A stretch of DNA of 64,000 nt from the NCBI RefSeq assembly GCF_041146345.1, contig NW_027191405.1, forward strand, positions 1,798,001 to 1,862,000. Reading direction: 5' to 3'. The notes under the pieces were generated by a model. It was not told the DNA's origin, did not search any database, and was given only the letters and a program-made list of their open reading frames with translations. A program made the position numbers and the translations under genes. Source of the stretch: Neodothiora populina. Lineage: Eukaryota. The stretch's first letter is position 1, and each line of letters begins with the position of its first letter. Below are positions 36,624-42,500 of the stretch, in pieces.

Positions 36624-38353
36624 GACGTAGGTAAAGCCGTCGAGCGGGCTGTCTCCTTCGGTATAGGGTGGTGGAGGCTCTCCGTCGTCGAGGTCCTTGT
36701 CCTTGGAAGAGGAAGGGTCTTTGCTGTCTCGTGGAAGAGCAGCTTTGGTGTCAGCGACGACTGCAGCAGCTGCCGAGGATGACGACGACTCTTCAAAGGG
36801 GGAGCCGGCGCAAAAGCAGGCGGCGGGTTCTCAGCAGAGACAGAGCCGGGAGTAGACTCAGGTGAGAAAGATGGAGGATCCTCCTGAGTGGGATAGTAAA
36901 GCGAGGGGAAGTTATGCGACGAGAACGGCGGTGGATCCGAAGAGTCGGCAGAGTCCTTGGGTTGATCTGAATCTACGGCTTCAGTTGACGCTGCTGTTGT
37001 TTCAGCGGGTCGTGGTGACGGTGTTGCTGTCTCTGTTATCACTGCTAGAGTAGCCGATGTGTCGATTTCGGGGGTCGAAAGTGTGGTTAACGAGTGATGA
37101 GGTGGAGGGGAAATCGACGACTTCTCGGGAGGCGGAGTGTCGTGAGGTGCAAATGAGCGTGTGGTAGGGATGGACGAATGCTCTGAATCCAATGCGGCGG
37201 TGACTCGAAATGTAATAGGTAAGTAGTGTTTCTGCTCCACTGTAGAGTCGAGCGGTCCAGCTTCAAGGGCAGATAGACGATACAGCAGCGCAGCTACTTG
37301 TTGTTATGTCACGCGAACGATCGCGATGTATATGTCTATGTAGAGAGCATCCGTGGGGCGGGGCAGTCTGCAGTAAGTGGAGGTGGAGGCGCTTGTGACA
37401 AGACTGCAGTATCGAAGATTATAGCTGTTTCTACACTCGGTGCGATCGAGAGGGCAGCGCTAGGTATATGAAGTCCGTTGTGGTGGATGAAGGAGAGAAC
37501 AAGGCAAAGGGAAGTGACACGGTGAGACAGGTAAAGAACAGACACGGGACGACGGTACAGCAGGAAATTATACAATACAGTATGGATGAAACGTTGAGCG
37601 AAGTGCACCAGTCGACCGTATTCCTGACACTTGTGAGCTGGTGTCAAGGACTTCTCTGATCGGAGACCAGAACGAGTGGCTAAGAAGGCTTATCAGGTGT
37701 ATATAATCTCGCACTCTGGCAAGTCATGTTGTCACGCTGCTTTGTGAGGCTAATACAACCCCGTACTGAGATACCGCTGCTACTCTGCAAATTGCCTGTG
37801 CTTCCGGTCCACCAGTCCGATCTTACTTGAAGGTCCAGTGTAGGAACTGACAGTAGCTGTACTGTGTGATACACCGAGATCGTACAACACAGCACAATAC
37901 CTACCTACCAATTAAGGTACAGTACCTACATTAGCAGCATAAGAGGGCTGGAGATTCGAACCTTAATCTGGCACATGTTCTTACAGTAAATAATGAATGC
38001 TTGCCTCATGATACCGTACTCATATATGTGATATCGTGCGTATTTATCATACCATATATCCCAATTTTATTCCAAGCTTGTCGTCTGTGCGAACCACCGC
38101 CGCGTAAACTGCGGCTTCTCGACATGCTCCGCTTTCTTTCTGCTTTAAATTCTCAGTTTGTGACAGCTTCTGAACTATTTCAATCCCCACTACCGTTTCT
38201 CAATCTGACCTCACACACACCACTTCCTGCCTCATATGCGAGCTATCACAGCGGACATGGCGCAGGTAGCTGTGTGTAGTCTTGGAGAGTCATTTGCGCG
38301 TAGTGGCTCCACGTAATGTAAGTCAAAAATCTCTCTCTTCATAGATTTGCACA

Positions 38354-38430
38354 CTGGGATGAACTTTTACCGAACAATCCAATTCCTATAGCGTCGTGAA
38401 GGATTATTTACTCTAGAATTACTCTGAGAA
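38354..38430 (+). ncRNA. Box C/D snoRNA, U45/SNORD45-like (18S Am at GGUAAmUUCUAGAG); second guide to 25S GUUGGAUUGUUC
   Basis: C-like GGGATGA 38356-38362, D CTGA 38424-38427 preceded by CTCTAGAATTAC (antisense to 18S GTAATTCTAGAG); GAACAATCCAA 38372-38382 antisense to 25S TTGGATTGTTC. Confidence 0.85.
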
Positions 38431-38686
38431 ACCTAGCAATCCATTTGTTCTACATCATCATTGATGAAAATGCTCATCGCTGACTTGCCATCTGCATTAG
38501 TTATCATCGTCGACACTCCATTCACTCTCGTCATGGACAATTTCTTCAAAGATTCGGTGTTACCTTCGTTGGTTCGACTCCTTGTTCTTTACATCAACAA
38601 ACCGGGCCTCGAATCTTGTCACAGCATTCGAGGCCCAACTCTTCAAAAGGTCAGTTTGAACAGAAATATCTTCCACTACACTTTCT

Positions 38687-38780
38687 TCTGTGATGAAATT
38701 ATGACACACGAATTGGCATTCCTCGACCTTAATATATCATGTCGAAACCGTCGCAATTAAGTTTCAGCCTTGTCTGACCT
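38687..38780 (+). ncRNA. snR41: Box C/D snoRNA snR41 (18S Gm1126; probably also Am541, yeast numbering)
   Basis: C GTGATGA 38690-38696; D CTGA 38774-38777 preceded by TTAAGTTTCAGCCTTG, a 16-nt antisense to 18S CAAGGCTGAAACTTAA with the D+5 rule landing on G; D' CTTA preceded by TTCCTCG. Confidence 0.92.
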
Positions 38781-38883
38781 CCTTTGAAAAATCACTTCTC
38801 CCATCGAAACCAATATTGCATGACTGTGTGCTGACATTGTCTGCTTTAGGTATCCCATCACTGCCACAATCCCTTGCCCCTCT

Positions 38884-39012
38884 TGCATGAAGAAAGTTTG
38901 AACGAACGGGCGGACTTAATGCCGTCTCGGTCGCCATCGGTAAACACGAGGCGTACAAACCTCGTCGATGGATGCGCCGGGAATTGCTTGCTGAGATGTC
39001 GTCACCTGATCC
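38884..39012 (+). ncRNA. snR70: Box C/D snoRNA snR70 (18S Cm1639)
   Basis: C ATGAAGA 38887-38893; guide ACGGGCGG before D' CTTA 38915-38918, antisense to 18S CCGCCCGT; internal ACGAGG/CCTCGT stem; D CTGA 39006-39009; lies between snR41 and snR51 as in the yeast cluster. Confidence 0.82.
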
Positions 39013-39133
39013 ACTTGCCAAACATACGCCTTCTGGAGAACCAAAATACAACATGACAAAATCTGTATACTAACCCCCATGCCTAGGTATGCTTTTCTCT
39101 CTCACCATCACACCGCAATGCAATCGCACATCT

Positions 39134-39227
39134 TAGATGATGAACAACCTTATTCACACTGTTTGACCGGACCAACTTGTAACGAGGTTGGTCTGGAATG
39201 AACATTAAACACTGAAAATTCTGATTT
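39134..39227 (+). ncRNA. snR51: Box C/D snoRNA snR51-like (25S Um2729 via D', Um2724 via D)
   Basis: C ATGATGA 39137-39143; TATTCACACTG before D' TTGA 39163-39166; 12-bp hairpin 39167-39196; ACACTGAAAAT before D CTGA 39221-39224; both guides antisense to 25S ATTTTCAGTGTGAATA. Confidence 0.88.
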
Positions 39228-39451
39228 AATGAGGTAAGCTCAACTCCAGCCTATGACAAAGCTCTTGTGGCTGACGTGCTAAAGCCTGATCCAGATGCTG
39301 CTATGCTTCTTTACCACCGAATTCGCTTCACGGACATCACTTCTTGATGAGTGAGCTGACCCCTCGGTGTAGTGAATCGAAAGAACGACTCGAAAATCTT
39401 CTTAGAGACGATATCATCGTAAGTTCATAATCTACATGCCCCTCCCCACCT

Positions 39452-39536
39452 ATCTGATGAACAAAGATATTCGCTGTGTTCTTCCTGAGACACGTCGTTG
39501 AAGACTACTATATCATTCACTTTGGAGACCTGACAA
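39452..39536 (+). ncRNA. Box C/D snoRNA with dual guides: 5.8S Am (GAAGAmACGCAGCGAA) and 25S Cm (GGUCUCmCAAGG, U55/SNORD55-like)
   Basis: C CTGATGA 39454-39460; TTCGCTGTGTTCTTC before D' CTGA 39485-39488; C' TTGAAGA; TTCACTTTGGAGAC before D CTGA 39530-39533 (one G-U pair in each duplex). Confidence 0.88.
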
Positions 39537-42500
39537 AAATCGCCATCATCATGCATATGCGATATTCCATACCTTTTGCGAGCAGATCACTGACATGTGA
39601 TGCAGATGCAGTGCCCTGAAGATCTTACTAGTTCTATAGCCCGCATAATCAAAAACTTCCCTGAAGGATAAAACCCTCATAGTAAACGTGATGAACCCGT
39701 GCATGTGGTAGCAAGTGTGATACTGCCACGCTAGCACTGTACTGTCACTCCCATATCGTCCTGCATATAAAATCATTCGATAGGCGTGTCTTTGGTGATG
39801 TGTTTCACTAATAAAATCGATGTGGTGTGGCAATCGCTTGGTTTGTATAAGACCGCTGCCATGTGGTGGTGCCTGCCCTGCCATCCCTTCAGTCCCGTGG
39901 TTACCGAGCCAATGGTATGGGTGGGCTACTTACTGTACCTTCAGGTACCTAGCCTAGGTGCTTTAGCTTCTCCAGGAGACACACGTCCCGCCGTCAATCT
40001 ATCAGGGTTCCACTGCATGTCATGGCTACTACTACCTCACCTCACATGCACATGCACATAGCTCGCTCAGGTGCCTTAATTCCATCCTAAACCACTACCG
40101 GGAAATTGATTCGCTGATACGAACACATGGTCTCGTACCTACTATACGTGCATCTAGATATAGGCAGACTTTCGTGCCTTTGTGTTCAATAATCTGATAG
40201 ATATACCTACTTGCTCATATATCTACCTTTCTTACCTCGCTGCATGTGGTATATGCATGGCAGGAGCATCACGAATGAATCCCATCACCGAAATCATCAA
40301 GTCTCATTGATGCTGACTGACCAATAGATCCCGTTCCGCTCAGTCCATGAATCTACCAAGCCCAATAATATGTCATCTGCTGGACATATGCGTATCATTT
40401 ATCTCCCTGTCTCATCTGTATCTGTTCAAGTTTACGGTAAACGGGCAAACGACTAAACCTCACTTTTTCCAATGTGAAGTCAAAGCCATAGAGACGAGCG
40501 TCACGAAAACATCATTCAATATCTTTTACGACATTGGCAAATGCAGTAAAGACAGGTGGATCGACAGATGGCAGGAATACCTAAGGAACTGTAACGCTGC
40601 TTGTTGAAGCTATGCTCTGTAGAGTCTTTGAACCTGAAGAGTAAAGTACTTGTCGAGATTTGATATTGGAGGGCATGTAATCGTCCGCTGGTGCTGTCAC
40701 TATCCCTGTTGCTGTCTGTTTTGTGGGACATGCCGTGATTCGTCTGCCAGAGAGATGCTGAGCTTTCCAATATGAGATCTATACCGTGCAATACACGCCT
40801 AGTTACCTTTAGCAAGGAATGCGAAAAGGCACTTAAAGCAATCAGCAGAACTATCCAGGAACACCACAGTACAACAACAATCTGCAAAAAGGCAGTATAA
40901 CACGCGATATGCCCACTCTACTTCCAAAAGGAAAGAAGAATGCATTGTCCCCTTCCCGTTACTCTTTTCCTTTGTGTTTCCAGAAAGAGCACTAGACTTT
41001 GACAGAAGGCACAGCATACCAATTCCAGTGATGCGTGCATTAGAATGGTTGATCTGCAGAGATGCTGGTTCTAACTATACATACGTAAATACATATGCGG
41101 AAGAAAAAGGTGTCAAGAAGATAAATTGCTCCAGGAAAAAGTGAATGTGGACAGGCGGATTGGACAGGAACAGAGCTCGGAAGATGATTTCATCACATAT
41201 TAAGGTAAAATAGATGGACGGGTGTCCGACTGGCTCTGGCTTGTTGGCTGCTGGGTCTTGACTTGTCTTACTAGGTAACGCATGTTGTTACCAAAGAGGT
41301 CTGGTACGGGGCAGAATAATAAGGGGAGGCAAAAAGACAATACGACTACTACCGCTACAATGCGCGATCGTGTCCGGGTCATAAGGCTCCTCCAAAAGCA
41401 CGAGCTTCGCGCGTGACGGTATAAGGTGGAGGGGGGGACAGTAGCATGTGGTCGCTCGTCACGGCTGGGTGCATATCGGAACGGAGCAGGAGGGAGGATG
41501 AGAAAACCATAGGGAAAACGTCACTCACTCTTTGGACGGAAACGCTATAGGTTGGTTACACAAGGGCTTTTTTTTGGCAGCATGGGGGGCGGGCGGCGTG
41601 GTTGGTCGCAGGTGGCCTAGCGCACATTCCCATCATTCACCCTACCCACGCTTTCGGTCGCTGGAATTTTCCCACATGCCCGCTTAACCAGCTGGCTGTT
41701 CTTGAAGACGCTTTTGATGTTGTCGGAGAATGATATCCCTGCCTTCGGGTTATCTATACATCAAGCAATGTGACAATTCGGGGACGACCAGTATCGCCAA
41801 GAGGTGAGAAAACCGTGGCACTAAGGGTGGTGTCGATTTGAAACACCACGTCAGTCAATCGACTGGGAGTCGTCCCCTGGGGCAGTCAATAACATCGAAG
41901 CTAGATCTGATCGTGCGCAATGAGCATCGGTCGAAGACGGCCTCAAGCCACATGGTCTACTATCAAGCGAGCTCCCCGAGAAAAGCATAAGAGTGACGAT
42001 GTGCAGTCGAGCAATAGTGCCTGTGATTCGTTTCTTGGAATGTGCGTTTGTCTCATTGACCAACTGCACGTTTGCGTCCACTGACTTAGTGATGATTACG
42101 AAGTGCACTTCATTTACTCCGCATGTGGGTGATGAGTACCCTAAGCGCTGCAGTCGATGGATGTGCCGCTGCATGCAGCCCAGGATCTCGTAGATCGGTA
42201 GCCACAGCGGAGGCGAATATGCATGCTTTCGTAGTAGTATGATCCCAGCCCTTTGGTAGTGGCGTAATTTGTCCTGCAGTCCTTCCTAACTGAAGGTGAT
42301 GGATTTTCATAGCGGACCACACAACAGCAGAAGTATGACCTGTTCAGACAAGGCATATGTTAGGAATGTCGGGCTTTGAATCAATTCTTCGACGGACCAA
42401 GTAGCCTTACATTTTAGAAGATTCATAGGGGCAGCTTGGGAAGATACAAACTTGAGCAGAGGTTACGCATCCGGTCATGCTCGTCCGAATCCATTCGTCT

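Follow-up and report, generated by a model that had tools for sequence, protein, structure and literature searches.

The closest described system is the fungal snoRNA cluster III, composed of snR41, snR70 and snR51. Luo et al. (2013, PLoS One 8:e58547, PMC3596301) reported that this cluster is without both of its interior exons in all Euascomycetes. In their account it is flanked by the U45- and U55-associated introns A and C, and a further intron that carries no snoRNA, intron B, separates the antisense element of snR51 from its box D. Their 42 Euascomycete ESTs had intron I removed in 18 cases, introns I and II in 14 and all three in 10, and none had intron II or III removed with intron I retained. 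Stepwise splicing in the 5' to 3' direction was proposed, and the use of one donor with three acceptors was left as an alternative. S. cerevisiae carries the same three snoRNAs in exons, as a polycistron (PMC3596301). For N. crassa, the cluster has been listed as CD17, CD9 and CD6, of which CD6 (snR51) was cloned at 76 nt and called "exon-encoded" (Liu et al., 2009, PMC2780460). No report of lariats from cluster III was found in the published accounts consulted.

Several other systems share parts of this arrangement. In S. pombe, spliceosome profiling and RT-PCR revealed a zero-length exon in SPNCRNA.445, the host of snoRNA61 (Chen et al., 2018, 10.1101/226894). As in the locus described here, a 3' splice site abuts a 5' splice site in a snoRNA host intron, and the arrangement is conserved among related species, but SPNCRNA.445 is another gene in another fungal lineage and has one such junction rather than two. 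Clusters II and III of Candida are polycistronic snoRNA hosts in which both recursive splicing, with an exon size of 0, and nested splicing occur (Donovan et al., 2016, PMC5033589, citing Mitrovich et al., 2010). The exon between snR41 and snR70 is zero in cluster III of D. hansenii. Unlike the locus described here, cluster III keeps an exon of one base in C. parapsilosis and its relatives, where splicing is classical, and the rules of splicing order vary among species in the clusters of the Candida clade and D. hansenii (PMC5033589). Recursive splicing has also been reported for BOT1 of C. neoformans (10.1101/224170).

The ratchet points of Drosophila and vertebrates work on a similar principle, in that an AG|GT site yields a new 5' splice site once the first step is done. 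Animal recursive splicing subdivides introns of tens of kilobases, whereas the exon-less introns described here are 200-290 nt long and each segment holds one snoRNA. In a stwintron, the inner intron interrupts the donor, the branch point or the acceptor of the outer one (PMC8469720). Stwintrons resemble the present locus in being complex intervening sequences that are removed by consecutive splicing reactions. They differ in that the signals studied here abut one another, and intron B interrupts a snoRNA and no splice signal.

Here we describe cluster III in a window of 64,000 nucleotides from Neodothiora populina. The exon-less arrangement, with a proposal of stepwise splicing, has been in print for this cluster since 2013 (PMC3596301), and the window holds another ortholog that differs in nothing essential from the Euascomycete clusters as Luo et al. 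(2013) describe them. The order of the snoRNAs, the two missing interior exons, the flanking introns A and C, intron B and a non-coding host are shared. Since the same cluster was published in 2013, the added value of the locus as such is limited. The main text of Luo et al. (2013) contains none of the words AAAG, consensus, snRNA or weak. Relative to that text, the bare AG|GTA of the internal donors and the conserved AAAAG exon end described below are a modest addition.

The cluster III host gene of Neodothiora populina

The locus represents the cluster III host gene in the form that filamentous ascomycetes (Pezizomycotina) have. Box C/D snoRNAs of the snR41, snR70 and snR51 types lie in the window on one strand and in cluster III order (Table 1). 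The snR41-type unit matches the Rfam family Afu_455 (RF01860) above its gathering threshold (75.7 against 48 bits), and the snoRNA of intron C matches Afu_294 (RF01506), likewise above threshold (61.2 against 43 bits). The Rfam search gave no match for the snoRNA candidate of intron A or for the middle box C/D unit. The guide of the middle unit has a target that presumably points to snR70. Together with the position of the unit and the published order of the cluster (PMC3596301), this target is why the unit is called snR70-type here.

Table 1. Features of the cluster III host gene, in window coordinates.
Feature	Position	Strand	Signals and basis
Intron A with box C/D snoRNA candidate	38313..38500	+	read from sequence
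Intron A donor	38313 or 38318	+	GTAATG at 38313 or GTAAGT at 38318
Intron A boxes	38357-63; 38424-27	+	C-like GGGATGA; D box CTGA
Intron A 3' signals	38480-84; 38499-500	+	branch motif CTGAC; acceptor AG
Exon 2 of the non-coding host gene	38501..38649	+	ends AAAAG (38645-49)
Intron I	38650..38849	+	donor GTCAGT; branch motif GCTGAC 38830-35; acceptor TTTAG ending 38849
Afu_455 (snR41-type) in intron I	38686-38779	+	Rfam 75.7 bits
Junction 1, zero-length exon AG|GT	38849..38850	+	read from sequence
Intron II	38850..39086	+	donor GTATCC; branch motif TACTAAC 39068-74; acceptor CCTAG ending 39086
snR70-type box C/D unit in intron II	~38882-39013	+	C box ATGAAGA 38887-93; D box CTGA 39006-09
snR70-type guide	38906-13	+	ACGGGCGG
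Junction 2, zero-length exon AG|GT	39086..39087	+	read from sequence
Intron III (outer), most likely extent	39087..39372	+	donor GTATGC; snR51-type snoRNA; branch motif GCTGAC 39355-60; acceptor GTGTAG ending 39372
snR51 5' part	39132..39233	+	C box ATGATGA 39136-42
snR51 D' guide	39150-61	+	TATTCACACTGT
snR67-like guide in snR51	39207-20	+	followed by internal CTGA (D1) 39221-24
18S guide of snR51	39221-33	+	CTGATTTAATGAG; overlaps internal CTGA 39221-24
Nested intron B (51 nt) in snR51	39234..39284	+	donor GTAAGC; branch motif GCTGAC 39270-75; acceptor TAAAG ending 39284
snR51 3' part	39285..39297	+	D box (D2) CTGA 39286-89, then 3' half of terminal stem
Exon 3 (47 nt)	39373..39419	+	follows from splice sites
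Intron C	39420..39605	+	donor GTAAGT; branch motif CTGAC 39590-94; acceptor AG 39604-05
Afu_294 in intron C	39450-39536	+	Rfam 61.2 bits

By position, intron A is the counterpart of the intron A that Luo et al. (2013, PMC3596301) associate with U45, and of CD17 of N. crassa (PMC2780460). Intron C is the U55-associated intron C of the former (PMC3596301); a further ATGCAG ends at 39611. The longest ATG-initiated open reading frames between 38000 and 39900 encode 98 aa on the plus strand and 111 aa on the minus strand, and the three longest that overlap introns or exons of the host gene gave no Pfam match. A coding host gene was rejected on these two grounds.

Abutting splice sites in the window and its relatives

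At the first junction, GCTGAC (38830-35) serves as the branch motif; ATTGTCTGCTTTAG comes after it and ends at 38849, and GTATCC (38850) starts directly behind. At the second, TACTAAC (39068-74) is followed by CCCCATGCCTAG, which ends at 39086, and then by GTATGC (39087). The two AG|GT abutments of the sequence-only reading are therefore present exactly where it had placed them. At both junctions the acceptor is the first AG past the branch motif (38848-49 and 39085-86), and the GT is the sole GT ahead of the C box of the next snoRNA. As read from the sequence, ligation would rebuild a donor each time: AAAAG|GTATCC after the loss of intron I and AAAAG|GTATGC after that of intron II. The composite motif CTRAC-N4-30-YAGGTA occurs three times in the window, counting both strands, against an expectation of 1.9. 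A count so close to expectation is no proof in itself, and the evidence for the junctions is comparative.

Relatives were collected by scanning metagenome contigs for an exact match to the 19-nt snR41 guide, so that lineages with an altered guide lie outside the sample. At least 113 stretches were found, and flanks of 1600 bases were available for only 80 of these at least 113 listed stretches. The 113 listed loci and the window form a comparative set of 114 sequences. Among the matches listed, 88 of the 114 carry a snR70 guide 90-260 nt past the snR41 guide, and the C box and guide of the middle unit are conserved in 88 of the 114. The other 26 were removed ahead of all counts. Some of these hold tandem snoRNA arrays outside introns, from another kind of organism, while others are apparently chance matches or contigs that end early. 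The 88 retained among the matches listed fall into 60 clusters at 90% spacer identity.

The survey of exon lengths in orthologous clusters that had been suggested from the sequence bears out the zero-length junctions. Among the matches listed, AGGT is present in the snR41|snR70 spacer (junction 1) of all 60 clusters; 47 clusters extend to snR51, and 45 of them have AGGT in the snR70|snR51 spacer (junction 2). AGGT is also the commonest 4-mer of both spacers. One of the two exceptions at junction 2, L011, has a genuine exon of ~42 nt with the canonical donor GTTAGT. The other, L012, has AG|GC, and its near relative L026 has AG|GT. In shuffled spacers of the matches listed, AGGT was found at junction 1 in a mean of 7.1 of 60 clusters (maximum 15) and at junction 2 in a mean of 11.5 of 47 (maximum 22). 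The base at +3 is A in 59/60 clusters at junction 1 and in 37/45 at junction 2, and the pyrimidine at -3 amounts to 1.0 bit at the first junction and 0.4 at the second (among the matches listed). The junction 1 profile reads YAG|GTA at 1.0-2.0 bits, and the remaining columns from -12 to +12 hold at most 0.5 bits at both junctions, again among the matches listed. Columns -2 to +2 are set by the anchoring of these profiles, as they are in the profile of the intron I donor, and common descent of the clusters means that the events counted are not independent. The argument is therefore that the junction bases were kept while their neighbours were randomised. On this comparison the AG|GT abutments are not due to chance, and the pattern of conservation indicates purifying selection on YAG|GTA, on the AAAAG exon end and on the borders of intron B.

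snR51, intron B and the end of intron III

In a permissive search, the snR51-like Rfam match in the window (39133-39236) reaches 33 bits, which is under the RF01214 gathering threshold of 44. The score is low because intron B separates the D box from the rest of the snoRNA. Four tested relatives with an uninterrupted snR51 gave full-length Rfam snR51 matches of 53.5-58.6 bits, above the cut-off of 44. The uninterrupted form, AATGAGCCTGA, is found in 5 clusters among the matches listed. In the interrupted relatives among the matches listed, the 18S guide ends in ...AATGAG and a canonical donor follows directly. In 34/34 interrupted lineages with enough sequence, (C/G)CTGA stands directly after the first AG past the intron B branch motif, and intron B measures 46-68 nt in the relatives (both among the matches listed). 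By this comparison, 39234-39284 is the nested intron B, lying between the guide and the D box of snR51, and snR51 has its D box in the CTGA at 39286-89. Intron B would have to leave intron III for the 18S guide to be set beside that D box.

The placement of intron B changes the third unit. The sequence-only reading had built this unit on the GCTGAC at 39270-75, but that motif and the AG at 39283-84 belong to the nested intron. It had also closed the block at 39294, for a length of ~645 nt. The CAG at 39292-94 is probably no splice site, as it sits just 3' of the D box, within the bases that pair with those flanking the C box on its 5' side. Among the matches listed, a branch motif lies 47-66 nt and an AG 65-90 nt after the snR51 D box in 33/38 sequences; in the window these distances are 65 nt and 83 nt (AG at 39371-72). 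Intron III most likely spans 39087-39372, judging from these conserved spacings. With this end, the exon-less block measures ~723 nt (38650-39372) and exon 3 is 39373-39419. The likeness to stwintrons that had been drawn for the block did not survive, as its splice signals are uninterrupted. A stwintron reading was rejected because the four introns each have an intact, contiguous donor, branch motif and acceptor.

The snR51 unit may hold more than one snoRNA. The guide before the internal CTGA matches the Rfam model of snR67 at 18/18 bases of the 3' end (permissive search). Among the matches listed, 41 clusters have the 18S guide, and 27 of these, the window included, also carry this snR67-like guide. 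The clusters form a series of 5 that are uninterrupted, 9 with intron B alone and 27 with both intron B and the extra guide, and there are 0 clusters among the matches listed with the extra guide and no intron B. Such a series accords with a stepwise evolution of a dual arrangement. In three further clusters among the matches listed (L043, L078 and L029), the 18S guide is lost and the internal CTGA and the 25S guide are kept. For Onygenales and some Dothideomycetes, the 25S-2724 target has been listed among the D-box interactions of snR51 (Canzler et al., 2018, PMC5824354). The distribution of the extra guide, the loss of the 18S guide in three clusters and the 25S-2724 target make two snR51 isoforms possible. 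We suggest only tentatively, and with more doubt than confidence, that the unit encodes two overlapping snoRNAs chosen by splicing. A short form would use the internal CTGA (39221-24) as the D box for the snR67-like 25S guide, and a long form would arise when removal of intron B puts the second D box (39286-89) beside the 18S guide. Pairing of the intron B acceptor either with its own donor or with the recursive donor at 39087 would decide which rRNA site receives a guide.

A related proposal, which comes close to the third unit of the sequence-only reading, gives up the outer intron as drawn here. The donor at 39087 would be spliced to the acceptor at 39284 (or 39294) by way of the branch point at 39274, the product would be a short snR51 that ends at the CTGA of 39221-24, and 39285-39419 would be exon. 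The match to the snR67 model, the 25S-2724 interaction and the three clusters without the 18S guide all speak for such a product. So do the distances from D1, which are 50 nt to the branch A and 60 nt to the AG at 39284, and the N. crassa CD6 clone of 76 nt (PMC2780460), a length not easily squared with a long spliced snR51. Against the proposal, the 18S guide is kept, and CCTGA stands straight after the acceptor, in all 34 interrupted lineages counted above among the matches listed. Relatives that lack the interruption encode a full-length Rfam snR51, and the branch motif and AG past D2 are conserved as described. The alternative acceptor at 39294 is only the second AG past the branch point and lies inside the terminal stem of the snoRNA. 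We consider this short-form splicing unlikely, and it could coexist with the nested route. The terminal helix formed with the 5' flank averages 6.4 bp for D2, 5.2 for D1 and 3.9 for a control (n=33, among the matches listed). In the window the corresponding values are 5, 6 and 3 bp.

Proposed stepwise splicing of three introns

We regard it as probable, taking the explanation as a whole, that RNA polymerase II transcribes the host gene into a non-coding RNA of which the intronic box C/D snoRNAs are the useful products, and that three abutting introns leave it stepwise from 5' to 3' with one snoRNA per lariat. Intron I would be removed first, and the AAAAG of exon 2 would join GTATCC, by which a donor is rebuilt. 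After intron II is removed, the same AAAAG would join GTATGC, and after intron III it would join exon 3. If the introns are removed one by one, each lariat therefore holds a single snoRNA, which could be released by debranching and exonuclease trimming. We infer the order of splicing in Neodothiora populina, the dependence on the exon end that is discussed below, and the route of snoRNA release. Most of what had been claimed for the block stands: three abutting introns, each with one snoRNA, removed in steps, for which the published ESTs (PMC3596301) and the conserved YAG|GTA both speak, and snoRNAs as the only evident product. The third unit had been misdrawn.

Intronic box C/D snoRNP assembly depends on the distance to the branch point. 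Each intron of the block would keep its own branch point and acceptor, ~70-85 nt past the D box of its snoRNA. In the window, the distances from D box to acceptor are 70, 77 and 83 nt. Among the matches listed, the relatives have the D box of intron I 64-95 nt ahead of the 3' splice site (median 71), and the median is 71 nt at both junctions. These regular distances fit the known dependence on the branch point.

A single donor at 38650 might instead be joined to any one of three acceptors (38849, 39086 or 39372), with one splicing event per transcript and lariats that carry one to three snoRNAs. Luo et al. (2013, PMC3596301) stated this as an open alternative, and their ESTs fit it equally well, as every one joins exon 2 to one of three acceptor-side positions. 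It would also agree with internal donors that mostly have no G at +5. With only the acceptors in use, however, the GTA behind each AG could drift freely: among the matches listed, the GT after the AG and the A at +3 are kept at both junctions amid randomised neighbours, which is unexpected if these bases merely began a retained intron. The products with intron I removed would moreover be dead ends that still carry snR70 and snR51. A GTA under selection directly after an acceptor is hard to explain if it never serves as a donor, and this favours true re-splicing. We hold the use of one donor to be quite improbable. Removal of the whole block in one step as a long intron, with internal signals as relics and snoRNAs cut out by endonucleases, would recall the S. 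cerevisiae polycistron with its three exonic snoRNAs, but it is scarcely credible in view of the Euascomycete ESTs that have intron I alone or introns I and II removed (PMC3596301) and of the conservation of branch motif, YAG and GTA alike.

Under stepwise splicing, the locus would be a clean natural case of splicing that serves purely as an RNA-processing device, with exons shrunk to nothing and with each intron still holding a branch point at the proper distance from its snoRNA. The locus can also serve as a check on annotation, as zero-length exons and an intron inside a snoRNA are beyond gene finders.

Internal donors and the end of exon 2

Evidence at the sequence level for selection on the internal donors bears on the question left by Luo et al. 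(2013, PMC3596301). Among the matches listed, G is found at +5 of the internal donors in only 14/60 clusters at junction 1 and 20/45 at junction 2. The donor of intron I has it in 52/57 (in 3 loci the candidate donor with G at +5 was chosen) and that of intron B in 35/36, both among the matches listed. In the window, GTATCC has neither G at +5 nor T at +6, which makes it a poor donor and counts against re-splicing there.

The bases at the end of an exon contact the U1 and U5 snRNAs. The internal donors may have decayed to AG|GTA and may be efficient only once they are joined to an A-rich exon end. Such a dependence would enforce the 5' to 3' order. It would also penalise insertions between AG and GT and so fix the exon length at zero. 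This offers a testable idea for the order of splicing, in which weak AG|GTA donors may rely on one re-used, conserved exon end. Across 57 loci among the matches listed, the end of exon 2 has A at -5, -4 and -3 in 44/57, 47/57 and 54/57, and exon 2 is unconserved apart from this AAAAG end. At the end of exon 3, A occupies the same positions in 8/25, 8/25 and 10/25 of the matches listed.

An Intron Within snR51 and a Second Guide

The third of the end-to-end introns, intron III, carries an interrupted snoRNA. A spliceosomal intron of 51 nt separates the 18S guide of snR51 from its D box, and therefore snR51 itself needs splicing while it is still within the larger intron. The intron that interrupts snR51 was already named 'intron B' (Luo, 2013; PMC3596301). 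Upstream of it, a snR67-like 25S guide runs up to an internal CTGA, and this CTGA overlaps the snR51 18S guide. The snR51 unit thus has two candidate D boxes. Among the relatives in the matches listed, the extra 25S guide is confined to carriers of intron B, being found in 27 clusters (groups at 90% identity) versus none of the five in which snR51 is uninterrupted.

Coordinates of sequence features in the window
Feature	Position	Remark
snR67-like 25S guide, internal CTGA and snR51 18S guide	39207-39233	
Intron B within snR51 and D box beyond	39234-39289	spliceosomal, 51 nt
Final five bases of exon 2	38645-38649	AAAAG
TGATGA and GCTGAC, intron A	38462-38484	
TGATGA and GCTGAC, intron III	39345-39360	
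Tandem ATGCAG ATGCAG, end of intron C	39600-39611	
Branch site-short gap-YAGGTA match	~51406	minus strand

Exon Ends and Junctions in Relatives

Exon 2 is non-coding and unconserved apart from its last five bases. At the orthologous exon 2 ends among the matches listed (L003-L112; L-numbers denote metagenome loci with the exact 19-base snR41 guide), AAAAG is present in 35 of 57 lineages and nearly all are A-rich. The end of exon 3, unlike that of exon 2, is without such conservation.

Junction 2, between introns II and III, has two exceptions. The L011/L038 lineage has a genuine exon of ~42 nt with a canonical donor at this position, and the L012 contig reads AG|GC where a near-identical relative has AG|GT.

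The other end of intron III was compared across 38 sequences. In 15 of them (e.g., L004, L013, L017, L022, and L035), GT(A) directly follows the acceptor, and a canonical GTAAGT-type donor lies ~50-70 nt further downstream in those relatives. Such an arrangement looks like a recursive-splice exon of optional use. At this acceptor, the window has TAG|TGAATC.

Other Occurrences of the Guide and Small Motifs

The 19-base guide is also found outside this kind of organism, on contigs from a different one (L001, L002, L025, L054, L060, L067, and others). In these contigs, a second snoRNA follows the guide-bearing one, and the stretch separating the two lacks splice signals, so that they form a non-intronic tandem cluster.

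The motif combining a branch site, a short gap, and YAGGTA has a sole further match in the window. In introns A and III, TGATGA occurs 7-12 nt 5' of the branch motif GCTGAC, so that a C-box-like and D-box-like pair flanks the branch point; some relatives have TGATG at the corresponding place. The tandem hexamer that closes intron C provides two candidate acceptors 6 nt apart.
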